Shown in pieces: positions 10,682 to 59,563 of a DNA stretch of 64,000 nt. Position 1 is the stretch's first letter, and each line of letters starts with the position of its first letter. Location of the stretch: NCBI GenBank assembly GCA_000002435.2, contig CM018791.1; one strand, written 5' to 3'. A program made the translations under genes and the position numbers. The notes under the pieces were generated by a model. It ran no database searches. It saw only the letters and a program-made list of their open reading frames with translations, and was not told the DNA's origin. The DNA comes from Giardia intestinalis (lineage: Eukaryota).

Positions 10682-10797
10682 GGTAATTATTTCAAATATG
10701 TTAGAAATTTATCCTTGAAGTTTTCTGTTTTCAGAAGGTTCTGGCATAAGACGAATTTTCACCGATTTACTCCGTTTCACTGGAAAGGGAAATAAAA
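10682..10797. promoter_or_regulatory. AT-rich bidirectional promoter region between the eIF5B and dynein genes
   Basis: 116-bp AT-rich spacer between two divergent ATG codons. The dynein ATG sits in the context gggaaataaaaATG, typical of a Giardia initiator. Confidence 0.4.
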
Positions 10798-27450: not shown

Positions 27451-29438
27451 TTTATCAACCATCCGTTCGACTCTAAAGTAAATGCTTTATCTACACTTAA
27501 AAGAACATCGTTACGCAGCATTGAGAGGGCATCTTCTGCAGTGCGCGACTCGCTGAGTAGTTTTTTCAGAGTTGTCTGCTGGGTAGATGATGTGTGCAAT
27601 CCTAGAGACTGCACCAAAGTCTCTATAGGCTCAAGAGATGCACTGTTGAGGGCAAGGATAACTAGGCACAAAGTAGCATATCCATCGCGAATGATCGCCT
27701 GCCTTCCCATGTGCGTGTCGGTGTACGTGGCTGCAATCTGCTGAAAGACATTTCGAAGATTGTCAAGGCTAATATACGTTGCTGTCGAAGTCAGAAAGAT
27801 GTCAATGGAAGAATAAAGCATCTCGCTTACAGTTAGTAAGACGATTAGCAAGACATTATAGCTGTGATATTGGTGTAGCGCTCGACCAAACAAGGTGAGG
27901 ATGCCGGGGGCCTTTGCTGGATCACAGCCGTATTCTCTATAACAGAAACCTGCTGTCTCTCTCATCCAACTGAGGGACAAGAAACCCATCTTATTGATTA
28001 CAAAGAATATCATCATTGTAGTTGTCTCTGGGTTAGAGGTCAGCCGTGTTCGCAGAAGGTCTACAGCCTCCATCAGAAACTTTGTCTTTGTCTCATAGTC
28101 GAATGAAAATCTATCTATGCACTGAGTTACCGCTAGAACCACTACCTGAGGATTTAACATGTTAGTCTCCATCAATGCCAGCGCCAGACGGCAGCCTGCA
28201 TGTGCAACTGTGTTATCGCTGCCGTTTGCAAGGTTGGAAATAATGGGCGTGATAGTAGGTCTCAACTTAGGAAGATAAACAGAGAGGTCTGGAGAACTTT
28301 GCAGGACGTCGGCTAGCCTGTTAAAGCCTATCATGAGAGAACGCTTCCCTCCTGGCGATGCAACGAGATGAAAAATCCTTGGGAAGACATCCTCCAGGAG
28401 CTCAGGCGTGTGAAGACATCTGTTAAGAATGACCGTCATGCTGCATTCTATTAGCATACCTGCCCGGATATTGCTGTAATGCTCATCCGGCGAGTTATCA
28501 GGCCCCTCTGTAACTTGCATTCTGGGAGCACGCAGGTATCTCCAGATTACCTTCTGAAAAGTGGCAATTGCCTCGGATGGGAGACGAGAAATCTGGGAGC
28601 CTAGAAGCTTTATCACTGCAAGCTGAAGGAATGGATTAAGCACTCCATGATAGAAATCGAACGACCGTGGCCAGGAACCTTCTGTAATGTTGTCCCATAC
28701 ATTTAGAAGCTTCATCAGGTATGTGTCAGTAACAAGCTGGGAGTAGTAATCAGTGGACAATAAGCGTGTTGCGAAGAAAACGGAGCCCTGTATAAGTTTC
28801 CATGAAAGACTCCCGGACTCAATAAGATCCATATCGTCCTCAATAGCGTGTATGGCCTTAGCAAACGAGACCCTCAAAAATTGACTTTTGTAGTCAGTGA
28901 GGGATCCTAAGAATACATAGCAGGGGACAATTGTCTGAGGGCCGCCTTTTCTAAGTAAAGACAGTGCTTCGGGAACAACAGCTTCAATCAAGGATTCTGT
29001 TCGTGGCATACTCCTAGCGAGATATCCGAGCATTATTCGTGCTCCGTCACTAGAGCCAGACGTGCTCAGTTCCCTGCAGACTGAGTTAAGGAGAAAGTGT
29101 TCCCATATAACTAGCGGCGGGTCTGCATACTCGAGTGCTAAAATCCCCACCACCTTGTCCTGGATGGCGGGCCGTGCTAACAGTGAAGCAGCCATGGGTA
29201 TAACTTCCTGAATACGCGAGGGGTTATTTATCAAACCCCCGTCGATATTGTCTGAAATCGTGTCTGCCAAGATAAGTTTGAGCAAAGCAGCACGCATTCT
29301 ACGGCAAGCCTTCTCACTTGCTAGGTATCCAGCGCGCACAATGCGCATTGATGGTGCAACCTCTCTTTCCACAGCCAGGCATCGGTCATCCTTTGACTCT
29401 AGATTTCGCACCTGCGAGGTAAAGCGTTCATATAACAT
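27447..29438 (-). CDS. Hypothetical protein, possibly built from ARM/HEAT-like helical repeats
   Basis: The ORF-track start at 29543 is GTG. The first in-frame ATG is at 29438, in the context cagaaaataaaATG. No diagnostic motifs. Its stop codon overlaps the dynein stop codon (ttag). Confidence 0.45.
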   Translation of the reverse strand: MLYERFTSQVRNLESKDDRCLAVEREVAPSMRIVRAGYLASEKACRRMRAALLKLILADTISDNIDGGLINNPSRIQEVIPMAASLLARPAIQDKVVGILALEYADPPLVIWEHFLLNSVCRELSTSGSSDGARIMLGYLARSMPRTESLIEAVVPEALSLLRKGGPQTIVPCYVFLGSLTDYKSQFLRVSFAKAIHAIEDDMDLIESGSLSWKLIQGSVFFATRLLSTDYYSQLVTDTYLMKLLNVWDNITEGSWPRSFDFYHGVLNPFLQLAVIKLLGSQISRLPSEAIATFQKVIWRYLRAPRMQVTEGPDNSPDEHYSNIRAGMLIECSMTVILNRCLHTPELLEDVFPRIFHLVASPGGKRSLMIGFNRLADVLQSSPDLSVYLPKLRPTITPIISNLANGSDNTVAHAGCRLALALMETNMLNPQVVVLAVTQCIDRFSFDYETKTKFLMEAVDLLRTRLTSNPETTTMMIFFVINKMGFLSLSWMRETAGFCYREYGCDPAKAPGILTLFGRALHQYHSYNVLLIVLLTVSEMLYSSIDIFLTSTATYISLDNLRNVFQQIAATYTDTHMGRQAIIRDGYATLCLVILALNSASLEPIETLVQSLGLHTSSTQQTTLKKLLSESRTAEDALSMLRNDVLLSVDKAFTLESNGWLIN
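27477..27483 (+). terminator. Poly(A) signal AGTAAAT about 27 nt past the dynein stop
   Basis: Matches AGTRAAY. It lies inside the 3' coding region of the convergent minus-strand gene. Confidence 0.4.
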
Positions 29439-29521
29439 TTTATTTTCTGATAGACCATTCCCTGCAGGGACGGCGGTCCGTAAGGAGGCAGGGAAAGTTT
29501 TAGACTTCCTAAAAAACAAAA

Positions 29522-31480
29522 ATGCAATTTGCTGCCTTGCCACGTCGCTACAAATATGAGACTATCTTGGGTGATGTGAAGGCATCCAGGACCAGCAAAT
29601 GCAGCGATACGTCTAGTAGCAGAGTGGTGGCAGTCAGATTTGTTCAGGAAGAATTTTACATTTCGGAGGATTCGAAGGCAAAAACGTCAGCTGACTACCC
29701 GGAAGGTGACCGAGTGAAGATTGATCGGAGCAAAGGCGTGTATATAGAGCAGATCTCTTTTCTCCTTGGGCTTAAGAACCAGTATTTGCTTTCATACGAC
29801 AAGCTGACTTCCGGGATTGCAACGGGGCGTTTTTATCTCCCCATGACATTTGTTCGCGGAGGATCCCTTAGAGATTGGATGGTCGAGCGTAAAGAATCCA
29901 AAACCCCTCTGACCCCGGTAGAGCTGTGGAGACTACTGTCTCCGGTAATTTCTGCTCTTGCCTACCTTCACGGTAGTTACAAAACAGAGAAGTATACCAC
30001 TGCTGCTGGCACCCAAAAACCAATCCGCCAACTTTATCACGGCGGCGTACACCCTGGAAACATTTTGCTTACGGAAGGAGGCTCTACGCTTCTTACTGAT
30101 CCATGCATCTGCCGCACGGCAACCATGAGCACTTTTATTCTGGATTTGGAAAATGCTCAGAAGCAACGGGACAAGTTCAAGTCCATTCAAGGGTACCTGT
30201 CATACCTCGCTCCAGAGGTGTTGCAGACCTACAAGCATCTTCCTGCCTCCGATATATGGTCTCTGGGCATTATCGCCCTAGAGATGTTCTCATCTAGAAA
30301 GCCTAAAGTACCCCCATATGGGCCAGATGCAGTAGACTACTTTTCCACTTGGACCCCGCCGGATACCTCGTCTTTTCCCAGTGAGGTAGCGTATTTTTTA
30401 GAATCTACTTTGGCTATTAGACCGGAAGACAGGATTACAGCCGGAGATTTACTTCAACTGCCGTTTATTCAAAGGATAATGCAAGAGAAGATAGCCGGAC
30501 GAAGTGTAACTGTAACCATAGCAGCCTGTGGCGATGGTGTCAATGGAGGCCTGTCTGGTGAGCAAAAGCAGCCAGTGACTACTTCACTTCCGGCATTGAC
30601 TGCAGAAGACTTCAAAAGAATGTTTCCAGGGGAAAAGGTGCCCAGCTGCATCCTTAAAAGGGAAAGAGATCTACAAGCTCAAATACAGAATGGTGACAGT
30701 AATCTTCTCGATTCAACTACGTCCGGAGCTAAGAAAAAATCTAGTTCCAAAGCACGTGGATTGAAAATCCCGGGAAATTATAAAGATACACATGACGGCC
30801 TTATCAATGCAATAAAGGACAACAATCTGAATGCCGTCAAAGCTCTTGTAAGGCACGCTAAGAGCTATGATAAAAATGGACTAACTGCAATGGCCCATGC
30901 TGCCATCCTAGGTCGCTCAGAAGTTGTCGAACTTCTTCTTCCCCATGAGGGAGGAATGCGGCTGAAGTGTGACAGAGATGTGGCAAACCTTCTCTATTCA
31001 TCGCCGACATCAATGATGCTTGCCGCATCCGAAGGCAATGACGCAGTGATTAGGGTGCTACAAGACTGCGAGGCTCGTGCATCAACTGCGAATCATTGTA
31101 GAACAGCCCTTATGGCTGCTGCTGCGTGCGGTTATCCGTCGATTGTCTCCCTGTTGGTCAAGGACGAGGCACGGATGACGACAGATAATGGTACAACTGC
31201 TCTGATGCTTAGTGCAAGGGGAGGGCGGCTAGAATGTGTGAGTATTTTGGTACAACAGGAGCACGGATTGGTTGACAGGTGGGGCAACTCCGCTCTAGTT
31301 TTAGCCGCAGTTAATGGTCATATGTCTTGTGTAGATGTCTTGGCTGAATACGAAGGTGAAGAATATGCGCGGCGTGCCATAAGTCTTGCCCCAGAAGCTA
31401 ACAGGGAGGAGCTCACTGCTAAGCTTCTAACGTACATTAGTGCACCTCCTCCCGCAAAGAACTCTCTAGTTATAGTTTAG
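29522..31480 (+). CDS. NEK-like protein kinase homologue with C-terminal ankyrin repeats; predicted pseudokinase
   Basis: Kinase fold with HGGVHPGNILL in place of HRDLKPxNIL and no DFG motif, but the substrate-binding stretch YLAPEV and DIWSLGII are retained. At least 5 ankyrin repeats follow (GLTAMAHAAILGRSEVVELLL, TALMAAAACGYPSIVSLLV...). ATG in the context aaaaaacaaaaATG. Confidence 0.7.
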   Translation: MQFAALPRRYKYETILGDVKASRTSKCSDTSSSRVVAVRFVQEEFYISEDSKAKTSADYPEGDRVKIDRSKGVYIEQISFLLGLKNQYLLSYDKLTSGIATGRFYLPMTFVRGGSLRDWMVERKESKTPLTPVELWRLLSPVISALAYLHGSYKTEKYTTAAGTQKPIRQLYHGGVHPGNILLTEGGSTLLTDPCICRTATMSTFILDLENAQKQRDKFKSIQGYLSYLAPEVLQTYKHLPASDIWSLGIIALEMFSSRKPKVPPYGPDAVDYFSTWTPPDTSSFPSEVAYFLESTLAIRPEDRITAGDLLQLPFIQRIMQEKIAGRSVTVTIAACGDGVNGGLSGEQKQPVTTSLPALTAEDFKRMFPGEKVPSCILKRERDLQAQIQNGDSNLLDSTTSGAKKKSSSKARGLKIPGNYKDTHDGLINAIKDNNLNAVKALVRHAKSYDKNGLTAMAHAAILGRSEVVELLLPHEGGMRLKCDRDVANLLYSSPTSMMLAASEGNDAVIRVLQDCEARASTANHCRTALMAAAACGYPSIVSLLVKDEARMTTDNGTTALMLSARGGRLECVSILVQQEHGLVDRWGNSALVLAAVNGHMSCVDVLAEYEGEEYARRAISLAPEANREELTAKLLTYISAPPPAKNSLVIV

Positions 31481-31503
31481 CTGTAGATTATCTACTGAAT
31501 TGT

Positions 31504-32649
31504 ATGTCAGCTAAAGAATTTATGATTACATGGTCTATAGACTCTATCTATGTGGTGCTACTCCTAAGAACACTGATACCGTATACATGTTTGTTTCTGA
31601 GTAGCCTAATCCCCCCGCACATACCAGTCTACGATAAGCGGATGGGTGTTATTCGCGTCTTTCTATCGTGGGATGTCGAATGGTTTCTAAGGATAGCGGG
31701 CGGCGGCTATAGCACGGAAGCTCGTCTTGCATTCTTCCCTGCCTTGCCCTTCTTGCTTCGTGAGATTGGCATCAAGGGTGTCCTCGCATTGAACGGAGTG
31801 CTACGGATCATAAATGCAGTACTCCAGATTAAGTTATGCTGGCACCTGAATCGATTGGCTGGAGAAGCTTTCACACCGCAAACTATAAGGAAGCTCCACT
31901 TCCTCCTCATTTTTTCACCAATAGCTGTGTTTGAAACAGTTCCATACACAGAAACCCTGTTTGGATGTCTGAGCGTAATGTTTCTTTTAGTGTACAGCTC
32001 CATGACTCTTTACAATAAAAAGGTACAGGTACTTGGTTATGTTGCGCTTGTACTGATAGGCATGCTGATGGGACTGGTTAGAAATACAGCCGTATTTCAT
32101 GCAGGATACTTTATGTTTGGTGTAATTTTCTTGTCCAGGCCCATAGGAGAGCTTATCCTTAGTGGGTATTATTTTCTATCCGTTCTTCTTCCGCTGAAAA
32201 GAAGATTGGAGCAGTATTATGAAATGTGTATACCCTTGAAGAATGTCTCTAAAATCTACTCGAATATTCAGAATAAGTACTGGGGTGTTGGTCTCTTTAA
32301 CTACTGGAAAATCACAAATCTTCCACGGTTTTTGCTTGTCCTTCCATCAACATTTCTGTGTCTGAGTTATATGTTTACAGAAAGCAAGAAATGGATACAT
32401 AGCGTCTGCCGAGAACGCAATGTATTCCCGAGGCTTACATCCTTTAAGTTTGCGGTTGCTACTCATGCTTTCGTATTGACAAGTATAGTAGTTTTTTTGG
32501 CCAATGTGGAAATCCTACCGCGAATTCTGCTTTCTTCGTGCCCTAGCATCCTAGCTCATGTTCCCTTTAACCGTAGCACTATCTATATGGTTGTTCTCGT
32601 TTCCACGCTCGGGGCGGGGCTCTTCGGGGCGTTCCTTCCCTGGACGTAG
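31504..32649 (+). CDS. GPI mannosyltransferase 2 (PIG-V/Gpi18 family)-like multi-pass membrane protein
   Basis: The motif WDVEWFLRIAGGGYSTEARLAFFPALP matches the PIG-V signature (W.DGEHFLHIAEHGY..E...AFFPGFP). The protein has many TM helices. Its last ~17 codons lie inside the inverted-repeat left arm. Confidence 0.55.
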   Translation: MSAKEFMITWSIDSIYVVLLLRTLIPYTCLFLSSLIPPHIPVYDKRMGVIRVFLSWDVEWFLRIAGGGYSTEARLAFFPALPFLLREIGIKGVLALNGVLRIINAVLQIKLCWHLNRLAGEAFTPQTIRKLHFLLIFSPIAVFETVPYTETLFGCLSVMFLLVYSSMTLYNKKVQVLGYVALVLIGMLMGLVRNTAVFHAGYFMFGVIFLSRPIGELILSGYYFLSVLLPLKRRLEQYYEMCIPLKNVSKIYSNIQNKYWGVGLFNYWKITNLPRFLLVLPSTFLCLSYMFTESKKWIHSVCRERNVFPRLTSFKFAVATHAFVLTSIVVFLANVEILPRILLSSCPSILAHVPFNRSTIYMVVLVSTLGAGLFGAFLPWT

Positions 32650-32664
32650 GGCGCAGATTTGGGC
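32648..32664 (+). promoter_or_regulatory. Histone promoter motif GGGCGCAGATTTGGGC upstream of H4 copy 1
   Basis: Shares the GCGCAGATTT core with the motif upstream of H2A. Lies about 35-50 bp upstream of the ATG. Confidence 0.5.
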
Positions 32665-32697
32665 TAAAAAAGAAGACGCGGGAAGGGGCAAATAAAA

Positions 32698-32997
32698 ATG
32701 TCTGGCAAGGGTAAGGGTAAGGGCTACGGCAAGTCGAAGCGCCACTCGAAGGAGAAGGACACGCTCGGGGGCATCACGAAGCCCGCCATCCGCCGTCTGG
32801 CGCGCCGTGGAGGTGTGAAGCGCATCTCCTCGACGATCTACCAGCAGACCCGCGAGGTCCTCAAGGCGTTCCTCGAGGTCGTTCTCCGCGACTCCCTCAC
32901 ATACACAGAACACGGCCAGCGCAAGACGGTCACGTCCCAGGACGTCGTCTACGCTCTCAAGCGCCAGGGCCGCACACTCTATGGATTCGGGATCTAA
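32698..32997 (+). CDS. H4: Histone H4 (copy 1)
   Basis: Translation ...[85 protein letters not shown] is a canonical H4 core. ATG in the context caaataaaaATG. Confidence 0.9.
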
Positions 32998-35640
32998 TTA
33001 TAGTAAACAGTCTGTCTCCCCGTAGCTTCTGTAGTCGCACCCGCTGGGGTCAAGGACGTCTCCTTCGAGTGGGCAGAGGATCCTGATGGCGGGTGTGTGT
33101 CCCCGGCTCGCCGCATACATCAAAGCGCAGCGCCCTGCTGCATCAATTGCTCCGTGCTCCAGAGGGGCAAGCACATGCACAGATGCCATCTGGCCACAGA
33201 GGACGGCCTCGATCAGCGCTGTCCGGCCACGGTTGTTCCGGAGCCCTGCTTCAACGGTGACGAGCTGGCAGACCGCAGCCGTGGCGCCCACGACCGCGGC
33301 GCACATGAGGGCTGTCCACCCCTCTACCGTTTGAGCGCGGGCCTCGTAAAGAAGGAGCGCCTCAACACCCTCCACGTAGTTTGAGGCGGCGGCCACCATC
33401 AGGGCCGTCTCGCCGCGCTTGTTCTGCAGCCGCGCTTCAGTCCTGAGAAGACTGAGAGCATCTGTAGCCCAGAACCGCGCCGCATAGATCAGGGCAGTGT
33501 CTCCATCGAAGTCCTGCCTGCCGTGCTGGAAGGGGAGAAGCCTATCGATGCAGCCAACGCGGTTGTTTGCCGCCGCAGCCATTAGAGCAGTGCGCCCCCG
33601 ACTGTCTGCGATGTCCGCCTCTGCCCCCACGAGGAGGTTGAGGAGCTGATGCATACCGCGTTGCGCCGCCAGGAAAAGAGCTGTGCAGCCTTGGGCGTCG
33701 CGGCCTCCGGCGTCTGTTCGCATCCGCTGGAGAACCATGGCCTCGTCGCACGAGAAGATTGCGTGCTGTAGAGGGCTGCGGCGGAGAGTGTTGTGGACCA
33801 GCTCAGACCGCAGCTTCTGACGGATACACGGATGTGTCGCAAGCATCGATAGAGCGGTGCGCGCCACAGGGTCCGGCTGGAGCATGCCAGCCAAGACTCC
33901 GTGCAGCTCGTCCGAGTACGACAGACCAAGAAAGTGGCCTCGGAGATGTGCCTGGGCGTCATCCAGTGTCGAGCAAGCAATGATATCTCCGCGGCAGAGG
34001 TGGCAAATTGTTTGTGCCAGCTCCCAAAGGTCTGCCCGGGAGCCTCCAACCCATGACTGGGCGCTGCCAGGACGAAGTTCAGGTGCAGTGAAGGGATCCA
34101 GACCCTTGTCCAAAGCCAAGTGTCCGCAGCGAGATGGCTGCGTAAGCTTCTTGGCGAAGCGCAGAGCAGACCCTGTGTCAAGAAGGCGCAGATCCCCTTC
34201 CTGGGTCAAATAAAGCGCCCACGGGCGGATAGCATGGTGACAGAGGGGGCCGTCAGAGCGCGTCTGGAGCATGCAGAGCACATCGACAACGGCAATAAGT
34301 AGGCTCCAGACCTTCTGCTCACAGAGACCTCCCCTGTCCAGAGTTCCTACGACGTCGCTGAGACGGTGAAGGGAAGCGGCCTCCACGGCCTCATAGGCGT
34401 AGGTGTTTAAGGAGCTGATCTTTCCAAAGGACAAGGGCACAATATATGGATGCGATATTGAAGCTAATTCTGCAAAATATTCAGTTATAGCATTCTGCAA
34501 CACAGAGTCATCTCCGATACGATATACTTTGCAGAAAACACGGATACCTGTGCTACGATTTTTGAGAACAAAACCTTCACACATTCCGTTGAATCCACAG
34601 TGCGCTATGGGTAGGTAGTCTGGGAGATCCAAGAGTATGCTTTCTAGAGAGTTTTCAATTAGAGAAGATAATCCATCAGAACGGCCTGTCAGAGGCTTCT
34701 GCAACCAGGAAGGTAAAACAAGAGGCTGCGGTACATCGAGAGGAGGCTCTAAAAGAGATCCAATGGGTATAGAACGAAGAAGGGTGCGACTAGCAAAGGG
34801 AACTTTGGATAGAAGGTCACAAACTTTGGGATGCAAGAGAAGTTTGGTAGGAGTTGGCCTATCGGAGGGTCTGTATGCTAGGAGCTGTGCCACTAACGGC
34901 CGCAAAGTTAGGGGAACCTTCTCCACCAAAGTCGATGCACGCTTTGGTAAGGCGCTAGGACCAAGAGTTGAAAGAATGGCCGGAAGCACCTGTGATCTAT
35001 CGTCTCCAAATGGATAGCTGCCATTACAGATTCTGTATAACAGACATCCGAGAGACCACATAACCGACTGTGTACTTCCTGGCCCCCCATGAAGAACTTC
35101 AGGACTTGAGCAGGGCCCGACAACAAGCGAGGATACACAGATGTTATCCCTAGGAGGTTCCAGGGCTACTCGAGGGTGTAAGAGAACCCGAAAAAGGTCA
35201 ATCTCTTTATCGTATGAAAAATGCGCAGGGTCCAGCTCCTCGACCGGCAGGGTGTCGAAGAGAGCTGCAGGACAGAGAAACTCCTTATCAAGCTCACTAT
35301 AGAGAGCAGCAACAGAAGCTATAAGTCTCCAACAAAGCCTCACACGCATGGAAATGGACTGGTCTTTGGTGTCAGCAATTGGAGAATAGGGGAGTAGAAG
35401 CCGAAGCTGTATGACCTCTGGAACAGACTCTTCATTAATTGCATAATTCATTACAAGCGGATGGATGGGCTTAGAGATGTATAATGTGAGCCGCTGTCTC
35501 CATGCGTCAATAGATCCTTGTGGTAAGCTCTGGAAGTGAATATTATGGATATCTTGCCCACAGAGGTCTGTATTCTTGCTAACAGTAAAGGTGACGCGCT
35601 GCATAGTATAAAGGTTGGGACAGTGAGAGTCTTCTGGCAT
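32998..35640 (-). CDS. NEK-like kinase homologue with C-terminal ankyrin repeats (Protein 21.1-like); predicted pseudokinase
   Basis: The ORF-track start at 35712 is TTG; the first in-frame ATG is at 35640. The kinase-like domain carries CHHAIRPWALYL and LDTGS in place of HRD and DFG. The C-terminal ~300 aa are ankyrin repeats, encoded inside the left repeat arm. Confidence 0.7.
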   Translation of the reverse strand: MPEDSHCPNLYTMQRVTFTVSKNTDLCGQDIHNIHFQSLPQGSIDAWRQRLTLYISKPIHPLVMNYAINEESVPEVIQLRLLLPYSPIADTKDQSISMRVRLCWRLIASVAALYSELDKEFLCPAALFDTLPVEELDPAHFSYDKEIDLFRVLLHPRVALEPPRDNICVSSLVVGPCSSPEVLHGGPGSTQSVMWSLGCLLYRICNGSYPFGDDRSQVLPAILSTLGPSALPKRASTLVEKVPLTLRPLVAQLLAYRPSDRPTPTKLLLHPKVCDLLSKVPFASRTLLRSIPIGSLLEPPLDVPQPLVLPSWLQKPLTGRSDGLSSLIENSLESILLDLPDYLPIAHCGFNGMCEGFVLKNRSTGIRVFCKVYRIGDDSVLQNAITEYFAELASISHPYIVPLSFGKISSLNTYAYEAVEAASLHRLSDVVGTLDRGGLCEQKVWSLLIAVVDVLCMLQTRSDGPLCHHAIRPWALYLTQEGDLRLLDTGSALRFAKKLTQPSRCGHLALDKGLDPFTAPELRPGSAQSWVGGSRADLWELAQTICHLCRGDIIACSTLDDAQAHLRGHFLGLSYSDELHGVLAGMLQPDPVARTALSMLATHPCIRQKLRSELVHNTLRRSPLQHAIFSCDEAMVLQRMRTDAGGRDAQGCTALFLAAQRGMHQLLNLLVGAEADIADSRGRTALMAAAANNRVGCIDRLLPFQHGRQDFDGDTALIYAARFWATDALSLLRTEARLQNKRGETALMVAAASNYVEGVEALLLYEARAQTVEGWTALMCAAVVGATAAVCQLVTVEAGLRNNRGRTALIEAVLCGQMASVHVLAPLEHGAIDAAGRCALMYAASRGHTPAIRILCPLEGDVLDPSGCDYRSYGETDCLL
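33002..33008 (+). terminator. Poly(A) signal AGTAAAC, 5 nt past the H4 stop
   Basis: The sequence runs atc TAA tta t AGTAAAC. The signal lies inside the last codons of the convergent NEK-like gene, whose stop codon directly abuts the H4 stop. Confidence 0.5.
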
Positions 35641-35866
35641 AAGGGGATTTTTGGCTCTTTCTACGCCATATGAGCATAATGTGTCCCTCACCAAGACACT
35701 AGTTAATTGCAACCGAGAGTCACCTTGTAAGATTCAGCAGCCCCTGGGGCAGTCAGGCTTTTCAAGAAAACGTTCCCTTGGGCTTTGATGGACCATGGCT
35801 AAGTCAGAGCAAAAGCGTAAGATAATAGCGTGTTTATCTCTCCAGCGGAAAGACGCGTTGCACCAT

Positions 35867-36830
35867 TGACGCCCAGGCACATCTCCGAGGCCACTTTCTT
35901 GGTCTGTCGTACTCGGACGAGCTGCACGGAGTCTTGGCTGGCATGCTCCAGCCGGACCCTGTGGCGCGCACCGCTCTATCGATGCTTGCGACACATCCGT
36001 GTATCCGTCAGAAGCTGCGGTCTGAGCTGGTCCACAACACTCTCCGCCGCAGCCCTCTACAGCACGCAATCTTCTCGTGCGACGAGGCCATGGTTCTCCA
36101 GCGGATGCGAACAGACGCCGGAGGCCGCGACGCCCAAGGCTGCACAGCTCTTTTCCTGGCGGCGCAACGCGGTATGCATCAGCTCCTCAACCTCCTCGTG
36201 GGGGCAGAGGCGGACATCGCAGACAGTCGGGGGCGCACTGCTCTAATGGCTGCGGCGGCAAACAACCGCGTTGGCTGCATCGATAGGCTTCTCCCCTTCC
36301 AGCACGGCAGGCAGGACTTCGATGGAGACACTGCCCTGATCTATGCGGCGCGGTTCTGGGCTACAGATGCTCTCAGTCTTCTCAGGACTGAAGCGCGGCT
36401 GCAGAACAAGCGCGGCGAGACGGCCCTGATGGTGGCCGCCGCCTCAAACTACGTGGAGGGTGTTGAGGCGCTCCTTCTTTACGAGGCCCGCGCTCAAACG
36501 GTAGAGGGGTGGACAGCCCTCATGTGCGCCGCGGTCGTGGGCGCCACGGCTGCGGTCTGCCAGCTCGTCACCGTTGAAGCAGGGCTCCGGAACAACCGTG
36601 GCCGGACAGCGCTGATCGAGGCCGTCCTCTGTGGCCAGATGGCATCTGTGCATGTGCTTGCCCCTCTGGAGCACGGAGCAATTGATGCAGCAGGGCGCTG
36701 CGCTTTGATGTATGCGGCGAGCCGGGGACACACACCCGCCATCAGGATCCTCTGCCCACTCGAAGGAGACGTCCTTGACCCCAGCGGGTGCGACTACAGA
36801 AGCTACGGGGAGACAGACTGTTTACTATAA
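35867..36830 (+). pseudogene. Truncated copy of the ankyrin-repeat 3' end of the NEK-like gene (gene fragment without promoter or kinase domain)
   Basis: Encodes a stretch identical to the C-terminal ~300 aa of the 32998-35640 protein. The reading frame opens at the repeat boundary with no ATG in a good context; a TTG lies at 35934 and an ATG at 35943. Confidence 0.65.
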
Positions 36831-37130
36831 TTAGATCCCGAATCCATAGAGTGTGCGGCCCTGGCGCTTGAGAGCGTAGACGACGTCCTGGGACGTGACC
36901 GTCTTGCGCTGGCCGTGTTCTGTGTATGTGAGGGAGTCGCGGAGAACGACCTCGAGGAACGCCTTGAGGACCTCGCGGGTCTGCTGGTAGATCGTCGAGG
37001 AGATGCGCTTCACACCTCCACGGCGCGCCAGACGGCGGATGGCGGGCTTCGTGATGCCCCCGAGCGTGTCCTTCTCCTTCGAGTGGCGCTTCGACTTGCC
37101 GTAGCCCTTACCCTTACCCTTGCCAGACAT
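36831..37130 (-). CDS. H4: Histone H4 (copy 2, identical to copy 1)
   Basis: The protein is 100% identical to the 32698-32997 product. Promoter motif and the AGTAAAC poly(A) signal are mirrored as well. Confidence 0.9.
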
Positions 37131-37163
37131 TTTTATTTGCCCCTTCCCGCGTCTTCTTTTTTA

Positions 37164-37180
37164 GCCCAAATCTGCGCCCT
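37164..37180 (-). promoter_or_regulatory. Histone promoter motif (mirror copy) upstream of H4 copy 2
   Basis: The plus-strand sequence gcccaaatctgcgccc is the reverse complement of GGGCGCAGATTTGGGC. Confidence 0.5.
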
Positions 37181-37303
37181 ACGTCCAGGGAAGGAACGCC
37201 CCGAAGAGCCCCGCCCCGAGCGTGGAAACAAAGACACCACTGAGTAAAACCTTGCTTTGTCAGTTTTGACTCTCAATAGCAAGAATTTGCAGGCTAAAAT
37301 TAA

Positions 37304-37576
37304 ATGACCATAACGGCTCCGATTCAGCTTCTTTTTGAGGCAATTGATATGTGTGTGTCCGTAGAAACCAGGACAGGTAGCATATATGAAGGAAAGCTTG
37401 TGTCTGTAGAACCAACGCTTTCGGTTACTATTTCGAACTGCACAATAACACACCCTACGGGTCAAAAGGAAACAGCACAAACGGTTATGCTGAGAGGATC
37501 TGAAGTTCGGTTTGTGTCTGTTCCTAATGCCCTCGTAGACTCTCCGGTATTGAAGCAGGGAAATCGCAAAATTTAA
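37304..37576 (+). CDS. Small nuclear ribonucleoprotein Sm D3-like (Sm fold, no RG tail)
   Basis: The N-terminal motif APIQLLFEAIDMCVSVETRTGSIYEGKL...ISNCTIT aligns with SmD3 [29 protein letters not shown]...MSNITVT, and VMLRGSEVRFVSVPNALVDSPVLK aligns with [24 protein letters not shown]. Confidence 0.75.
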   Translation: MTITAPIQLLFEAIDMCVSVETRTGSIYEGKLVSVEPTLSVTISNCTITHPTGQKETAQTVMLRGSEVRFVSVPNALVDSPVLKQGNRKI

Positions 37577-37590
37577 AAAACGCTTCAGGT

Positions 37591-38811
37591 ATGAACAAGC
37601 TGATTGCCGTCGAGGCATGTCGGTGCTTGGCGGTAATACAGGACACTATAGACGTGCTTGAGCGGGTAATGTGTGTCAATCCAACTCTCTTTACTTTAGG
37701 CTTAGACTTTGATGGTTTGCTGGGCAAGGAGTTGTCGACTGCTATGCGGAAATATCAACAAACTCGCACTACACTGGAATCATTGCGCACAGAGTTGGCT
37801 TCTGTGAAGGCAGCAGGCTTCAAAGCACGACTTAAGTCTATTCAGCGGAAGATAGAAGGCGCCACGGATATGTTTCAGAAGGCTGTGAAGCAGCTAATAG
37901 TTTTGTTAGCGGGTGAGCTGGATTTCATTCCCAAGTTGGAGCAGGCGGGGGTTCAGCCTGTGTTGCTGCAGCCTCAGGCGGCTGTGCTTGGAGGAGCTGC
38001 AGGACGCTCCACTGCTACTGCCTCTGTAGCAGGGGACCACGCTCAAGTCCTCTCTCAGAGTCAAACGGGCACACTTGTCCCCAATCAAGCAGCCCAAAAC
38101 TATGCCAGTATCAATGATCTAATTGCTATTCTCAAGTCCCTGCATCACGTTGTCTCCATTGACATGATGACGAGTGCTGACCAAGAGAAGCAGAAGAAGA
38201 CCATGCTTGCGGCTTTGGCGGCCTCTGAGCGCACAAATTTGGCACATCTTCAATCTCTCCGCCGGGAGCTGGATATCACGATGGGGCAATGTCAGTCGGC
38301 TGAAGAGAGGGTTGCTCTGCACTTGGCTACCATAAACGAGTTACTAACTACTAACGCTGTCAATGCAGACAACGAAACAACCAGGTTGATAGAGGAGTCT
38401 TCGGGATTGGAGACACAGAGCCAGGAGTCGTACTCAAAACGAATTGGTGATATAATGCCAAAGATACTTGAGCTCCAGCGGAAAGTTGCAGACTTATGTA
38501 AGAAGCATAGAGATAATGTAGTAGACATTCAGCGAAACAAGCGCCGCTCTGAGTTTCAGATTCGCAACTGGTTAAAGAACTATGATGAACGGTGTATCGA
38601 CTGTGACAACCTCATCTATAAACTCCGGTACGAGATCAACATAAGCGAAGATCGAATTGGAGTCCTCCAGGGTGTCATCAATGCATACAACGCATACCTA
38701 ACTAAGCGCACAAGCCAGTACGAAGAGAAGGAGGAGGTACTACGGCAGTTCATGCTCAGCTGGGAACTTCCTCCAGTTGTCTACGAAACACAACATAAGG
38801 AATTCGGATAG
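37591..38811 (+). CDS. Hypothetical coiled-coil protein
   Basis: 406-aa ORF whose ATG lies 14 bp after the SmD3 stop. Heptad-rich, Q/E/K/L-rich sequence with no catalytic motifs. Confidence 0.5.
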   Translation: MNKLIAVEACRCLAVIQDTIDVLERVMCVNPTLFTLGLDFDGLLGKELSTAMRKYQQTRTTLESLRTELASVKAAGFKARLKSIQRKIEGATDMFQKAVKQLIVLLAGELDFIPKLEQAGVQPVLLQPQAAVLGGAAGRSTATASVAGDHAQVLSQSQTGTLVPNQAAQNYASINDLIAILKSLHHVVSIDMMTSADQEKQKKTMLAALAASERTNLAHLQSLRRELDITMGQCQSAEERVALHLATINELLTTNAVNADNETTRLIEESSGLETQSQESYSKRIGDIMPKILELQRKVADLCKKHRDNVVDIQRNKRRSEFQIRNWLKNYDERCIDCDNLIYKLRYEINISEDRIGVLQGVINAYNAYLTKRTSQYEEKEEVLRQFMLSWELPPVVYETQHKEFG

Positions 38812-38846
38812 ATAGATTGCTTTATTTTATTTACTTTAAAGGAGTC

Positions 38847-40472
38847 TCAGAGGGAGGCGTGTGCGGGAGTAAATACGCGGTACTCTCGGATGAGCTCTAG
38901 GCTTGTGCTTGGGCCTATTAAGTCGCGTATGTTAGAAATCTCATGAACGATCATGGTTGGCCTCTCTAGGCTAAGGCCCCAAGCCAGGACTTGCACATCT
39001 TCGGGGAGGCCAAGGGGCAGGAGCACTTCCGGCCGGAAGAGTCCAGAGTTACCCACCTCTACCCAGCGTTTTAGCTGGGGGTGAAATGCAAAAATTTCCA
39101 TGGACGGTGCCGTGTAGGGGTTGTAGGTTGCCTTAAACTTGAGCTGAGTCATCCCAAGGCGAGCAAAGAAGGCACGGAGAGTCGCGATAAGGTTTCCAAG
39201 GGTCAGATTCCGGTCAATAACCATTCCTTCCACCTGGTTAAACTCACAAAGGTGGGTGGCATCAAGTGTCTCGTTGCGATAAACCCTGTCAATAGAGAAG
39301 AAGCGGCGTGGTCTAAACTCGCCCGTTTTCTGATAATGCTGACCTATTTCATAAAGCACACGGGCTGAGACGGCAGTAGTGTGCGTGCGGAGAACGTTCC
39401 TAAGAGCCTCTGATACCTTCCAGACATATCTGTATCCCTTGGAGCGCATAGCCTCTCCTCCGCTTTCGTGTGCCGTCCTGATCCGCTCTACAAGCTCAGC
39501 ATCGAGAGAGTCTCTCCTGGTTTGAGAGTACTGTCCGCCTACAAAGAACGTGTCTTGTGAGTCTCTAGCAGGGTGGCTTTGTGGCTGAAAGAGAGCGTCA
39601 AAGTTCCAGAAGCTAGATTCAACCAGCTTTGGTGTCTTCATCTGCTCAAAACCCATTCCAACAAACGCCTCGACGAATAGTCTTCGCATTTCCATCAGCG
39701 GGTGGAAGGCACCTGCATGAGGCACCGAGCCAAGAGACTCGAAATTCAGGGGCTTAATACTAAAGCCAAATGACGGTGTTCCCGCTTTGGCTGCAGCTTC
39801 GGTCGAAGGATTGTTTAAAAAGTGCTGCCTTACCATTTCAATGGTCAAGTCCGGGCTAAGCTTCTTCATACCCGCTTCGTATTTCTCTCCTTTTGAGATG
39901 ACAAAGTGCTTGAGCTCTGCAGTGGTGACGAGCTTCCGTTGCTTCAGTTGCTTGAAGAGGTCATCGTCAATCTTCTCTTGAACGAGGTCAGTTGTCCCAG
40001 GGATGACAAGACCATATAGCAGGGCCTGCGTGTCATCAGAGATGTCTGCCAAAGGAAGACATAGTTCGTAGCCGGGATCGGGGTCCTTCTTACCACTGCT
40101 AATTATCCGTATCCATTTAGCACGCATGCAGCCAGCCACTCCGACCATAAAGTCTCCCTCACTGAAGTATTTAGAGAGCTCACTTTTCTTGACAAGGCCT
40201 CCTTGACCTTGCGGGTGAGAAGTGGCAAGATCATTCAGCTTTGACGCAAGACGATACTCGTAAGATCCTCCTTGGAGAGTGGCCACTCCGTCTTTGGTCA
40301 AGACGATACAGGTCGTCTTTATGAGCTCCGTCTTCAGCACCTCATTAGCCTCCAGTGACTTCATCCAGGAGATCAGCTCTCCGTGCGGCACACTAAGAGC
40401 CTCTGCGGCAGCCTTACACGTTATGCTTTTCCGGTCTCGAAGAAGCTCATAGAGCGAGCAGGCAGTGGCCAT
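38847..40472 (-). CDS. FARSA: Phenylalanine--tRNA ligase alpha subunit (cytoplasmic PheRS alpha)
   Basis: Class II aaRS core with the PheRS-alpha-specific stretch GNSGLFRPEVLLPLGLPEDVQVLAWGLSLERPTMI, plus FFSIDRVYRNE (motif 2 region). Confidence 0.9.
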   Translation of the reverse strand: MATACSLYELLRDRKSITCKAAAEALSVPHGELISWMKSLEANEVLKTELIKTTCIVLTKDGVATLQGGSYEYRLASKLNDLATSHPQGQGGLVKKSELSKYFSEGDFMVGVAGCMRAKWIRIISSGKKDPDPGYELCLPLADISDDTQALLYGLVIPGTTDLVQEKIDDDLFKQLKQRKLVTTAELKHFVISKGEKYEAGMKKLSPDLTIEMVRQHFLNNPSTEAAAKAGTPSFGFSIKPLNFESLGSVPHAGAFHPLMEMRRLFVEAFVGMGFEQMKTPKLVESSFWNFDALFQPQSHPARDSQDTFFVGGQYSQTRRDSLDAELVERIRTAHESGGEAMRSKGYRYVWKVSEALRNVLRTHTTAVSARVLYEIGQHYQKTGEFRPRRFFSIDRVYRNETLDATHLCEFNQVEGMVIDRNLTLGNLIATLRAFFARLGMTQLKFKATYNPYTAPSMEIFAFHPQLKRWVEVGNSGLFRPEVLLPLGLPEDVQVLAWGLSLERPTMIVHEISNIRDLIGPSTSLELIREYRVFTPAHASL

Positions 40473-40474
40473 TT

Positions 40475-41143
40475 TTATTTGATTTTCGAGACCCTAGATC
40501 CATGAGAGCTTGAGGCCTTAAAGTGCACCCTCAGGGACACAACACCTTCTGGCGAAGAAGTACCAAGCTGGTTCTTGCTAACATAATGCCTTTGCTCTAT
40601 GTACCCCGAAGGGCTTCTTGCCCGAGAGCCAGTTCGGAAACCGAGAGCTGACTTACTCGGTTGTGGAGAGTTTACCTGTAGAGGAATAATGGTACGCTGG
40701 GGATCGCGAAGGGCCTTGCCACTCGTTGGGCGCAACTGAGGATTGTTGTAGTTACTTCTACCCACTTTAGGCGTACTTCCAGAGTACATGCTAGGTAGGC
40801 GAGAGACAGAGTCGGCCGCAAGACTGTATATTCTGCTATCGTCGACAGACAGGTTGAACTGCGAAGCAAGCCTTATTAGGAACCGTTCATATTCCGCCGG
40901 GTTTTCGCGTACCCACGTCTCTAGCCTATGGCAGTAGGAGTCCGTAATGCGGTGGAAGGAGTCAAGACATGAAAGGATCTCTTGTTGTTGCAGAGACGCC
41001 AGTTCGTGCATCTGCGCCCTATCTGCGGGACCAAGAAACCGAGAAGAATAGCGAACGGGCCCGTCTGAATATTGACCATTTACGTACGTTAAGGAGTAAG
41101 AATCTGATGGAGACTGGACATACTTTGGAATCGTTAAGGGCAT
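40475..41143 (-). CDS. Hypothetical protein
   Basis: 222-aa ORF with ATG in the context tctaaaaagtaaagcATG. Its stop lies 3 bp from the PheRS start. No recognised domains. Confidence 0.45.
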   Translation of the reverse strand: MPLTIPKYVQSPSDSYSLTYVNGQYSDGPVRYSSRFLGPADRAQMHELASLQQQEILSCLDSFHRITDSYCHRLETWVRENPAEYERFLIRLASQFNLSVDDSRIYSLAADSVSRLPSMYSGSTPKVGRSNYNNPQLRPTSGKALRDPQRTIIPLQVNSPQPSKSALGFRTGSRARSPSGYIEQRHYVSKNQLGTSSPEGVVSLRVHFKASSSHGSRVSKIK

Positions 41144-41201
41144 GCTTTACTTTTTAGATCCAACCAGACGTTATGTGGTAGACCGCTTGTACAAAGAAGT
41201 T

Positions 41202-41687
41202 CTATTGCTTAGATGACTTGGTAGGTGCAAACTCTGGATGGGGCGGCTTCCAAATCTTGACCCAGAGTTCCTTAAATTTGTCACGCCAAATCCCTGCGAG
41301 ACTATCGAACGTGGGCAGCTGGATAGCATTTCTGTTCTTTGTTATTAACCGATATATCTGAGTAGATCCATTACCCAGTGCAATCCAGAGCAGAGCTGCC
41401 AGCTTTAGGATCTCATATAAAGGCAGCCATTGGAGCAGAGGATCAACTAGATATTCTAGAATACTAAATATAGATAAAATAACCCAATAGGAAAGGTTCC
41501 CTGCGAGAGTGCGAACCATGGAGTCAGGGAGAACAACCTGGTCCAGATAAAAATCGGTGCAGACGATGGTACGGACGGGTGGCACGGTGTTCTGGAGCAC
41601 AGTGTGTAAACGGTATGCTGGGAAAAGATAGCAGCAGATTACTCTTACTAGGCTGCAGAGAGGGGCCCGTACATTGCCAACGTACAT
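41202..41687 (-). CDS. TB2/DP1/HVA22 (REEP/Yop1) family membrane protein
   Basis: The stretch WLPLYEILKLAALLWIALGNGSTQIYRLI matches the family signature (P.YY..K..FL.WL.LP...GA..LY). Hydrophobic hairpin segments are present. Confidence 0.7.
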   Translation of the reverse strand: MYVGNVRAPLCSLVRVICCYLFPAYRLHTVLQNTVPPVRTIVCTDFYLDQVVLPDSMVRTLAGNLSYWVILSIFSILEYLVDPLLQWLPLYEILKLAALLWIALGNGSTQIYRLITKNRNAIQLPTFDSLAGIWRDKFKELWVKIWKPPHPEFAPTKSSKQ

Positions 41688-41705
41688 GCAGTTTTTTTAC
41701 CAAAG

Positions 41706-42038
41706 ATGACAGACCAAATTCTTGCTGCAACCGTCATTCAGGCAGCTTTTCGGGGACATCGCTGCCGAAATGACATCATGGGTCTTTGGAATGATTGGTT
41801 GGATCAGGTGCGGGCCATCGAAAAGGACGCTGCTCTTTGTTTTGGACATCACCTGCCTTTGCTTGCTAACCGTCAGCCAGACCAGTCTAGATCGGGATCC
41901 CTAGAATTTGCCTCAAACAGCTGCAAGATTTACTCATATGGAGAGTCCCCCTATGCTTGTTCTGTGCATAGGCCCGACAAAATCCCTCCTAACTCTATCA
42001 TTGGCCCTTCGCTTTCTTTACCAGCTACGCAGAAGTAG
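41706..42038 (+). CDS. Possible small IQ-motif protein
   Basis: 110-aa ORF with ATG in the context tttttaccaaagATG. The N-terminal IQAAFRGHRCR fits the IQxxxRGxxxR calmodulin-binding motif. Its start is only 18 bp from the divergent REEP-like start. Short, so coding status is uncertain. Confidence 0.35.
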   Translation: MTDQILAATVIQAAFRGHRCRNDIMGLWNDWLDQVRAIEKDAALCFGHHLPLLANRQPDQSRSGSLEFASNSCKIYSYGESPYACSVHRPDKIPPNSIIGPSLSLPATQK

Positions 42039-42268
42039 GAGACATTAGCTAATCCATTAGAATGGAGCTCTAGTGAGACCCTTGAAAACTTGAGTCCGAA
42101 GATTTTGAATTTGGAATCAAGAGTTAAGAGTTTGCCTTCTGCCGAGTGCTTATCATCAGTAGAGGGTTAGTGATGACCGAGCATAAAAGTCCTTTTATCC
42201 GCTAGTCCTTTCCTTGATGATTTTTGGTTTTTCATGTTCTTTTCTAAAATTCTGCTAGTGGCTCCTCT

Positions 42269-42826
42269 ATGCCTCCGCCGCCGATCAGTAACAAGCCTCT
42301 GGTCGTTCGGCTCAAGGTTACCACTGCTGGTATGTCACAAGTGGGAAAGTCCTGCCTTATTAAATACTATTGCGAGGGGCGCTTTGTCAAGAAGTACCTC
42401 CCCACGATAGGAGTTGATTACGGGGTGCGGGCGCTTGATCTCGAAGGATGTACAGTGCGGATTAACTTCTTCGATCTGTCTGGGCTTGATGAGTATCAGG
42501 ACATTCGGAAGGAGTTCTACTCTGACACTCAGGGGTTGCTTCTTATTTTTGATATGTCCAATCGGGATTCGTTCACTGCCCTAGAAAAGTACTACGGCGA
42601 ATTCATCAAATCGTCAACGGGAGCTGGAGCAGGAGCAGGGAGTGTTTCTATTTACGTGATTGGCACTAAAGCTGATCTGCCAGCAGCCGTCTCTGTCGAC
42701 GAGGCAACAACGTATGCCTCCCGACTGAAGGGGGTCTTCTTTAAGGTTAGCAGTTGTACCGGTGATGGAGTAGCGCCTGCATTAAACACAATCTTCAAGC
42801 AACTCTTTTCGAAGGCAAAGGCGTAA
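42269..42826 (+). CDS. Atypical Rab-like small GTPase
   Basis: P-loop GMSQVGKS. The switch region has a Rab-like TIGVDYGV. G3 is the non-canonical FFDLSGLDEY instead of WDTAGQE. G4-like IGTKADL. 185 aa. IFT27/RabL-type relatives carry similarly altered G3 motifs. Confidence 0.7.
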   Translation: MPPPPISNKPLVVRLKVTTAGMSQVGKSCLIKYYCEGRFVKKYLPTIGVDYGVRALDLEGCTVRINFFDLSGLDEYQDIRKEFYSDTQGLLLIFDMSNRDSFTALEKYYGEFIKSSTGAGAGAGSVSIYVIGTKADLPAAVSVDEATTYASRLKGVFFKVSSCTGDGVAPALNTIFKQLFSKAKA

Positions 42827-42875
42827 TCAATCATGACAAGAAAGATCAAAACTATGCGAAACGGCATCATCAAAT

Positions 42876-59511: not shown

Positions 59512-59563
<52 letters not shown>

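Follow-up and report, generated by a model that had tools for sequence, protein, structure and literature searches.

Comparison of the histone H4 locus across Giardia lineages indicates that the two identical H4 genes in a 64,000-nucleotide stretch of Giardia intestinalis DNA (hereafter the window; contig CM018791.1 of assembly GCA_000002435.2) very probably represent an old inverted duplication whose arms have been repeatedly homogenized by gene conversion. Giardia is a tetraploid, binucleate protist. The identical tail-to-tail H4 pair itself was already published in 2007 from the same locus and organism group as the window (Yee 2007, PMC1872034; WB ORFs 135001-135003), and the authors proposed either a recent duplication or gene conversion. 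Our reading would settle this question, open since 2007, in favor of an old inverted duplication subject to gene conversion and against a recent duplication. That study described three H4 copies within 8 kb with 124 bp of shared 3′ sequence, whereas the window holds two copies whose shared downstream sequence extends over 964 bp and reaches into a NEK-like gene. The third copy, located at a contig end, was doubted by the authors themselves and may reflect contig-end redundancy in the old WB assembly. The cross-assemblage evidence that decides for conversion is presented here and was absent from the earlier work.

The structure is 4.6 kb in total and is the only inverted pair that a repeat search found in the 64-kb window. 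By both hand alignment and BLAST, positions 32599-33961 and 35867-37229 are 100% reverse-complement identical over 1363 nt, a perfect match that cannot have originated by chance, and 1905 nt (33962-35866) lie between them. The repeat search gave the pair as 32592-33961 / 35867-37236; the 7 extra outer bases of that call contain 3 mismatches, and there is no degraded edge past these 7 nt. The edges of the arms are abrupt: identity starts 99 bp before the H4 ORF and ends 964 bp after it. Each arm contains the 3′-terminal 51 bp of a PIG-V-type gene, an H4 gene with its 99 bp of preceding sequence and the 3′-terminal 964 bp of the NEK-like ankyrin gene. The features are as follows:

31504-32649, plus strand: PIG-V-type mannosyltransferase gene (Pfam PF04188), whose final 51 nt, stop codon included, extend into the left arm (32599-32649)
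32599-33961: left arm, 1363 bp, GC 0.63, with 100% reverse-complement identity to the right arm
32599-32697, plus strand: H4 upstream sequence of the left arm, 99 bp, with the histone motif at 32651-32664
32698-32997, plus strand: histone H4, PIG-V-side copy, an ORF of 99 aa with Pfam histone-fold matches
32998-35640, minus strand: NEK-like pseudokinase/ankyrin gene, 880 aa from the first ATG, with Pfam Pkinase and Ank matches and its last 964 nt in the left arm
33962-35866: unique spacer, 1905 bp, made up of the 5′ portion of the NEK-like gene (1679 nt, kinase-like) and the 226 bp upstream of it
35867-37229: right arm, 1363 bp, mirror of the left arm
35867-36830, plus strand: second copy of the NEK-like 3′ end (964 nt), with ankyrin repeats only and without the kinase domain (ORF 35934-36830)
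36831-37130, minus strand: histone H4, LSM-side copy, an ORF of 99 aa
37131-37229, minus strand: mirror copy of the H4 upstream sequence in the right arm, with the motif at 37164-37177
37179-37229, minus strand: duplicate of the 3′ end of the PIG-V-type gene (51 nt), forming the outer end of the right arm
37304-37576, plus strand: LSM/Sm-D3-like gene (Pfam LSM; source name “Small nuclear ribonucleoprotein Sm D3, putative”), in the right unique flank

The sequence-only reading of this DNA had taken the arms to be reverse-complement identical over 1363 bp, which the arm alignment bears out with 0 mismatches, and it had every detail of the anatomy right: the arms and spacer, the H4 gene with its 99-bp promoter region, the NEK-like 3′ end and the combination of one intact NEK-like gene with one fragment. 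Inspection of the sequence revealed no microhomology at the inner junctions, and an Rfam scan gave no match inside the repeat, its sole match being a truncated LSU rRNA near the telomere. A palindrome with a 1.9-kb spacer is unlikely to fold back. The right arm lies some 25 kb from a (TAGGG)n array that starts at 62227, and the window ends with this telomere array followed by a noisy reverse complement of the same array.

The two H4 ORFs lie tail to tail, 3833 bp apart, and the right copy has the LSM/Sm-D3-like gene as its divergent neighbor. The GCGCAGATTTGGGC motif upstream of the left copy (32651-32664) is mirrored upstream of the right one (37164-37177). Identity of the H4 coding sequences and of 99 bp upstream was likewise reported by Yee 2007 (PMC1872034), together with a minimal promoter of 50 bp and a 15-bp him motif essential for its function. 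The H4 and NEK-like genes meet stop codon to stop codon, and the poly(A) signal of H4 falls within NEK-coding sequence; hence, part of the NEK-like gene is necessarily copied along with H4. The proposal that the duplicated unit drags neighboring 3′ ends along therefore stands insofar as some NEK sequence must be copied, but not as to the extent seen in the window, since the P15 arms share only about 40-45 nt of it.

The NEK-like gene has orthologs in P15 (annotated as “Protein 21.1”; 81% identity) and in assemblage B (69% identity, 880 aa, with the same start). The Logan assemblies call its product as 868 aa from the second ATG, and an exact look-up of the 880-aa product gave no match in that collection, which has the 868-aa product. 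The DH assembly calls the right-arm NEK-like fragment as a 298-aa gene; this calls for a warning to annotators, as the ankyrin “gene” in the second arm is probably a by-product of the repeat.

A perfect inverted repeat raises the question of artefact, which the sequence-only reading had also entertained: the H4/NEK 3′ segment could have been placed twice, or a fold-back chimeric long read assembled. Either event would likewise give perfect arm identity, and the telomere array joined to its own noisy reverse complement at the window end hints at fold-back reads in this assembly. However, a false duplication would leave junctions missing from independent data, and all four junctions were recovered from independent read sets and assemblies. 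The outer-left junction is present in a Logan contig (L019) and in contigs from about 17 runs, the outer-right junction in two contigs (L008 and L020), the arm-to-kinase junction in four (L001-L004) and the arm-to-upstream junction in L001 and L003 (by 24-25 nt) as well as in the DH contig (L014). Thus, independent short-read assemblies with 100% identity to the window show both the PIG-V and the LSM flank joined to an arm. The contig entering from the left flank (L019) ends exactly at 33961, with none of the left-flank contigs from the approximately 17 runs extending beyond that point; those entering from the right flank (L008, L020) end exactly at 35867; and LSM-side contigs from six lineages start about k-1 nt inside the outer edge. 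Because the flank contigs stop exactly at the inner arm ends, two different continuations must exist there. Moreover, a single independently assembled DH contig (AHGT01000031.1, L014) holds both arms and the spacer, and the tail-to-tail layout had been obtained from a Sanger assembly backed by flanking PCR (Yee 2007, PMC1872034). An artefact is accordingly rejected as extremely improbable.

The sequence-only reading had proposed looking for the same arrangement in other isolates and assemblages. The same two H4 positions, one on the PIG-V side and one on the LSM side, were found in A1 (the assemblage-A genome of the window), A2 (isolate DH; L014), E (P15; L022, L021) and B (L016, L018). The outer edges across these four agree within about 15 nt; the PIG-V tail is found on the LSM side in all of them and partially in two further lineages, whose contigs also break at the LSM-side repeat edge. 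Both inner junctions are identical to the base in A1 and A2. On these comparisons, the inverted duplication of H4 is evidently old, predating the split of assemblages A, B and E. In G. muris, the position of H4 relative to the LSM, DRC10-like and PheRS genes, with a single H4 per block, matches that of the LSM-side copy, such that synteny places the ancestral H4 at the right-hand position. The PIG-V tail within the right arm, in turn, suggests copying from left to right.

The zero divergence between the arms and the sharpness of the junctions would also fit a very recent duplication in the lineage of this isolate, one that has yet to accumulate mutations and calls for no gene conversion; a very recent duplication was among the options named by the sequence-only reading. 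This is scarcely credible and is rejected, since A2, E and B have the same H4 positions, the same outer edge and the same PIG-V tail, and two more lineages have the LSM-side edge. It is further contradicted by the 13 substitutions between the window and DH, which are found in both arms of each genome, and by the approximately 16% divergence of the window arms from those of assemblage B.

The length of the arms, as opposed to their outer edges, appears to differ by lineage, with assemblage E at about 0.45 kb, A at 1.36 kb and B possibly at 4 kb or more. In P15, the region upstream of the NEK-like gene is homologous to the window up to exactly 35866. The P15 sequence that follows the LSM-side H4 was considered as a diverged NEK copy and rejected, as it displays only generic ankyrin similarity (35-39%); it is closer to another ankyrin gene, at 58.7 kb in the window. 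In assemblage B, the PIG-V-side contig (L016) and the LSM-side contig (L018) share an identical stretch from 9917 to 13953, two Logan contigs terminate at 13673, and no second arm lies within 10 kb on L016; this structure possibly reflects arms of at least 3.7 kb, or else an ambiguity of orientation. The NEK ortholog of another lineage (L031) is too diverged in its C-terminal half for the arm edge to be placed. Arm length might thus shift over time, through movement of the boundaries or through deletions.

An apparently lineage-dependent inner edge (about 45 nt beyond H4 for P15, as compared with 964 nt for A and possibly at least 3.7 kb for B), along with the unrelated ankyrin gene beside the LSM-side H4 of P15, could alternatively be taken as a sign that H4 was duplicated independently at one site in each assemblage, for instance at a hotspot. 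Such recurrence is very unlikely: all lineages have essentially one and the same outer edge, 40-50-nt PIG-V tail included, and A1 and A2 share their inner junctions to the base as well as having all 13 differences in both arms, so that conversion would still be required.

Evidence for homogenization of a single old duplication comes from comparing the arms within and between lineages. Over 418 shared columns, the left and right arms show 0 differences within each of A1, A2, E and B, as against 13-20 differing sites between lineages; DH, P15 and GS are short-read or 454 assemblies in which collapse of the repeat to a consensus could partly explain the arm identity, and the zeros for lineages other than that of the window might hence be slightly optimistic. 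The argument for the window's own genome is independent of this caveat. Complete arms compared between the window and DH show 13 substitutions, every one of which is common to both arms in each genome (13/13), and half of the 12 arm changes that could be polarized fall on the lineage of the window. The window/DH divergence of the arms (0.95%) comes close to the 1.15% of the spacer and the 1.13-1.57% of the flanks; without conversion, roughly 13 differences would be expected between the arms of the window, where 0 are observed. The window arms are about 83.5% identical to those of assemblage B. The locus therefore displays inverted copies on one molecule, orthologous junctions and paralogs that are closer to each other than to their orthologs, which together define an inverted duplicate under concerted evolution. 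Thus, of the possibilities raised by the sequence-only reading, it is ongoing gene conversion that gains support, from the 0 within-lineage against 13-20 between-lineage differences and from the 13 of 13 shared substitutions.

Purifying selection alone might be invoked to preserve the identity of the copies, given that the H4 protein is identical in every Giardia assemblage sampled and in G. muris. The chance of this is practically negligible, as the identity extends to synonymous sites and across all 99 bp upstream, of which about 50 bp are needed for promoter activity (PMC1872034), and also covers a functionless PIG-V tail and a 964-nt gene fragment. Moreover, this sequence is free to change from one lineage to another and does so at the rate of the flanks.

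The history that best fits the old duplication with homogenized arms would begin with an inverted duplication of the H4 transcription unit before the divergence of assemblages A, B and E, leaving one copy downstream of the PIG-V gene and the other divergent from the LSM/Sm-D3 gene. Conversion would proceed by homologous recombination repair with the other arm as template; new substitutions would be either erased or copied to both arms, and the two arms of any one genome would therefore stay identical even as the lineages grew apart. The homogenized tract of assemblage A would encompass the 99 bp upstream of H4, H4 itself and 964 bp downstream, the last being the ankyrin-coding end of the NEK-like gene because H4 and this gene converge without an intergenic gap. 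The promoterless-looking gene fragment in the second arm would be a by-product, and the outcome would be two identical and identically promoted H4 genes.

A crossover between the arms, as distinct from conversion, could invert the 1.9-kb spacer. Because the arms are identical, either orientation of the spacer yields one intact NEK-like gene and one fragment, and an inversion would be silent, since either arm completes the gene. On the DH contig (L014), a single contig of the 454 era, the spacer is inverted relative to the window, and, for assemblage B, the contigs of GS (L018) and GS_B (L016) attach the kinase half to opposite flanks. The opposite orientation in DH reflects either a repeat-mediated inversion or an arbitrary choice of the assembler, as the orientation is beyond the reach of reads shorter than 1.4 kb. 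The description of the left arm as part of the intact gene and the right arm as a fragment is hence correct for the window but not as a fixed property of the locus, given that the DH assembly joins the kinase half to the other arm; annotators should likewise note that the H4 copy adjoining the intact NEK-like gene may vary with the assembly. Xu 2020 (PMC7000408), Klotz 2023, the Be-2 paper and Pollo 2020 make no mention of the H4 locus, and hence of any inversion or structural variant there; the supplements of Pollo 2020 likewise contain no entry for the H4 genes.

The H4 locus offers a worked example, with age and flanks known, of the “identical inverted pair”, an architecture encountered time and again across Giardia genomes, notably among the vsp genes, and one that repeatedly breaks or mis-orients assemblies. 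Adam 2010 (PMC2996952) described 14 identical inverted vsp pairs, head-to-head or tail-to-tail, with 2.2-3.8 kb (2190-3847 bp) between the ORFs and flank identity that is lost abruptly 139-729 bp from the coding region, and regarded them as probably recent duplications. Like these pairs (PMC2996952, PMC7000408), the H4 ORFs are identical, lie tail to tail 3833 bp apart and have abrupt flank edges; and just as the vsp repeats broke early assemblies at contig ends, the H4 repeat does so in short-read contigs. However, the H4 edges (99 bp upstream and 964 bp downstream) fall outside the published 139-729 bp range on both sides, and the gene is a core histone and not a vsp, such that the class is matched by structure rather than by gene family. 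The H4 pair also differs in being, on our reading, old and homogenized, unlike the vsp pairs as judged in 2010. It is possible, albeit doubtful, that the H4 repeat is a live recombination module in which the spacer flips within and between isolates, as the comparisons of the window with DH and of GS with GS_B suggest, and the arms expand and contract between assemblages, with the same process maintaining all the “identical inverted pairs” of Giardia. If so, the vsp pairs would be old and conversion-maintained rather than recent duplications, which bears on the evolution of the vsp repertoire.

Beyond Giardia, the inverted repeat of plastid genomes undergoes copy correction, exists as flip-flop isomers and shifts its boundaries, and the palindromes of the human Y chromosome experience arm-to-arm gene conversion in large inverted repeats. 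The H4 locus resembles these systems in having arms that are identical within a genome and diverge between lineages, boundaries that appear to move and a unique spacer that may invert, but it is far smaller (1.4-kb arms and a 1.9-kb spacer) and is situated on a nuclear chromosome. The H4 pair opens neither a new mechanism nor a long-standing question.

The arms are GC-rich (0.63, against 0.47-0.50 in the spacer and flanks), and GC-biased gene conversion was considered as the source of this composition. It is unsupported, with 11 of the 12 polarized recent arm substitutions running from GC to AT. The GC3 of the NEK-like gene steps at about codon 400, and the arm edge lies about 160 codons further on, at codon 560; a similar step is seen in assemblage B, and the gene is GC-rich throughout in E.

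The window is the end of a Giardia intestinalis assemblage-A chromosome, since it carries a 1.6-kb (TAGGG)n array (62227-63856) and a truncated LSU rRNA, and since many contigs from read sets of Giardia match it at 100% identity. A repeat search of the whole window recovered a sole long inverted repeat (32592-33961 against 35867-37236). Sequence reading and BLAST delimited within it a perfect stretch of 1363 bp (32599-33961 against 35867-37229) with 0 mismatches, bounded by 3 mismatches among the 7 bases just outside the arms and enclosing a spacer of 1905 bp. These are exactly the arms and the identity given by a previous sequence-only reading, whose description of the inverted repeat, a real feature, is correct. 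The locus comprises (ORF list and Pfam):

29522-31480, plus strand, NEK/ankyrin gene
31504-32649, plus strand, PIG-V mannosyltransferase gene
32698-32997, plus strand, histone H4
32998-35640, minus strand, NEK-like pseudokinase/ankyrin gene of 880 aa
35867-36830, plus strand, ankyrin-only fragment
36831-37130, minus strand, histone H4
37304-37576, plus strand, LSM/Sm-D3 gene
right of the LSM/Sm-D3 gene, a DRC10-like gene and a PheRS subunit

Each arm contains the last 51 nt of the PIG-V gene with its stop codon, a complete H4 gene, whose 99-bp upstream region overlaps this PIG-V tail, and the last 964 nt of the NEK-like gene; the H4 unit and NEK-like 3′ end proposed for each arm are thus present in both. 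The stop codons of H4 (32995-32997) and the NEK-like gene (32998-33000) touch with no gap, and the H4 poly(A) signal AGTAAAC (33003-33009; taken from Yee et al. 2007, PMC1872034) falls within the NEK-like coding sequence. Therefore, copying a functional H4 unit necessarily includes some NEK sequence. The earlier suggestion that the duplicated unit drags the neighboring 3′ end along holds to this extent, but in isolate P15 (assemblage E) only about 40–45 nt are shared. The NEK-like gene also displays a sharp GC3 step (0.25-0.53 in codons 1-400 vs. 0.57-0.75 in codons 401-880), with the arm edge ~160 codons further downstream; its assemblage B orthologue has a similar step, and the P15 orthologue is GC-rich throughout.

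An assembly artefact, which the sequence-only reading had allowed for, is ruled out by several lines of evidence. Every junction is backed by independent short-read assemblies 100% identical to the window. One contig (L019) runs from the left flank into the arm and ends exactly at 33961, two (L008 and L020) enter the arm from the right flank and end exactly at 35867, and none of the left-flank contigs from ~17 more runs goes beyond 33961. Right-flank contigs of lineages A1 and A2 begin 29-30 nt inside the outer edge, and that of a k=141 assembly begins 140 nt inside it. We infer that a greedy de Bruijn assembler, on meeting the boundaries of a two-copy inverted repeat, produces such stops. Four contigs (L001-L004) span the arm-to-kinase junction, two of them extending 24-25 nt over the other inner junction. 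Both arms and the spacer are also found in a single contig of isolate DH (A2; AHGT01000031.1, hereafter L014), and tail-to-tail H4 copies were reported from a Sanger assembly in a region backed by flanking PCR (Yee et al. 2007, PMC1872034).

The repeat is also not a very recent duplication, as had been entertained, for the same two H4 positions recur in other lineages: both in DH, on the PIG-V side (L022) and LSM side (L021) in P15, and on the PIG-V side (L016, L013) and LSM side (L018) in assemblage B. The outer identity edges agree to within about 15 nt across lineages, and the LSM-side copy bears the PIG-V tail in every one (A1, A2, E and B). LSM-side contigs of two more lineages (L024-L027 and L028-L030), possibly the dog assemblages C and D, begin just inside the outer edge, with the histone motif and the PIG-V tail. 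Independent recurrent duplication is unlikely because the outer edge is common and the A1/A2 junctions are base-identical.

The left and right copies show 0 differences over 418 common columns in each of A1, A2, E and B, a within-lineage identity that in DH, P15 and GS (assemblage B) is possibly inflated by repeat collapse in older assemblies, without affecting the case for the window's own genome; between lineages, 13-20 of the same columns differ. The window and DH are separated by 13 substitutions along the whole arm (1363 bp); each is a transition and occurs in both arms of each genome. When E and B served as outgroups, twelve could be polarized, 6 falling on the window lineage and 6 on that of DH. 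Divergence between the window and DH is of comparable size throughout, at 0.95% in the arm, 1.15% in the spacer and 1.13-1.57% in the flanks, and the window arms are 83.5% identical to those of B. Without homogenization, ~13 differences would be expected between the window arms since the A1/A2 split and >200 since the split from B; none is observed. Judging from these comparisons, the arms are under concerted evolution, probably through gene conversion between them, the standard mechanism, as the sequence-only reading had offered as an option. Selection alone cannot account for identity at synonymous, non-coding and functionless fragment sites. GC-biased conversion was excluded as the cause of the GC-rich arms. 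The sole difference between the DH arms is a 17-nt tandem duplication (GCCGCGCTTGTTCTGCA) in one of them (L014 ~13700; window-equivalent 33411), which frameshifts the NEK-like gene (776 + 133 aa as called). This is either a genuine variant of one arm, as yet unconverted, or a 454 assembly error.

The spacer is inverted in the DH contig relative to the window, the inner flanks being swapped base for base:

L014 1-11264, window 22698-33961, direct
L014 13170-20300, window 35867-42985, direct
L014 9903-14549, window 37228-32599, reverse

Hence, the assignment of the intact gene to the left arm and the fragment to the right is true of the window, but the DH contig has the opposite orientation. Because the arms are identical, either orientation leaves one NEK-like gene intact and one fragment, and such an inversion would be phenotypically silent. 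The DH orientation may be a real repeat-mediated inversion, or it may be an arbitrary assembler choice without reads spanning 1.4 kb.

The position of the inner edge seems to vary between lineages. In A it lies 964 nt past H4. In the P15 LSM-side copy the shared sequence ends ~40–45 nt past the H4 stop, giving way to an unrelated ankyrin gene, and the P15 contigs break at this point. The B contigs of the two sides (PIG-V and LSM) match perfectly over at least 4.0 kb, a stretch that takes in the entire NEK gene plus its upstream region; this reflects either longer arms or orientation ambiguity in one assembly. The arms may have grown through repair synthesis that overran the edge, a route suggested for plastid repeats, or may have been shortened by deletions in an originally longer duplication. 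P15 homology upstream of the NEK gene ends exactly at window position 35866, at the inner border of the right arm; this position thus marks a rearrangement breakpoint peculiar to the A arrangement. The region upstream of the NEK-like gene, entirely different from one assemblage to the next, is a rearrangement hotspot between them: A has the second H4 arm 226 bp away, B (L016, L013, 13000-20300) has VSP genes plus a further kinase, and in P15 (L005 1-8300) 2.4 kb without called genes precede a flavohaemoprotein-like gene. Evidence on the direction of the original copying points both ways: the PIG-V tail in the right arm favors derivation of the right copy from the left, whereas in G. muris H4 adjoins the DRC10-like and PheRS genes, i.e., the right-hand position. 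G. muris, whose H4 protein is identical to the window's, has one H4 on each of two chromosomes (L015, CM016925.1; L017, CM016926.1; H4 at 10001-10300) within a duplicated block (ankyrin ORF, PheRS, DRC10-like, H4, adaptin and dynein heavy chain), and its H4 neighbors mix genes from both sides of the G. intestinalis repeat.

The repeat is explained by a well-known process and has largely been reported before. The H4 copies were known to be identical in coding sequence and in 99 bp upstream with the essential him motif, and recent duplication or gene conversion was proposed; that study counted three copies within 8 kb, the third at a contig end and regarded by its authors as unsure (Yee et al. 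2007, PMC1872034), whereas the window has two. With 3833 bp between its ORFs, the H4 pair shares the architecture of the 14 identical inverted vsp pairs, which are 2.2-3.8 kb apart with flank identity lost abruptly, identical genes occurring only as inverted pairs (Adam et al. 2010, PMC2996952); the long-read WB genome has 19 such VSP pairs (Xu et al. 2020, PMC7000408). Our analysis adds the full arm extent, the cross-assemblage evidence for an old, homogenized pair, the apparent arm-length variation between lineages and the orientation conflict between assemblies.

At the chromosome end, the (TAGGG)n array is followed by ~25 nt of unrelated linker and a noisy C-rich CCTA-type tract (63883-64000), the telomere repeat on the opposite strand; 62227-64000 looks like a fold-back/missed-adapter long-read artefact or a real head-to-head telomere junction. 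The truncated LSU rRNA (59297-60348; Rfam model positions 1891-3399), ~1.9 kb from the array, fits the subtelomeric rDNA remnants known at Giardia chromosome ends (PMC7000408). Near the subtelomere there are also a 93-bp tandem repeat of 1.8 copies in an ankyrin-coding region (58714-58882) and a direct repeat of 71 nt, its copies 93% identical and separated by 120 bp (55822-56012).
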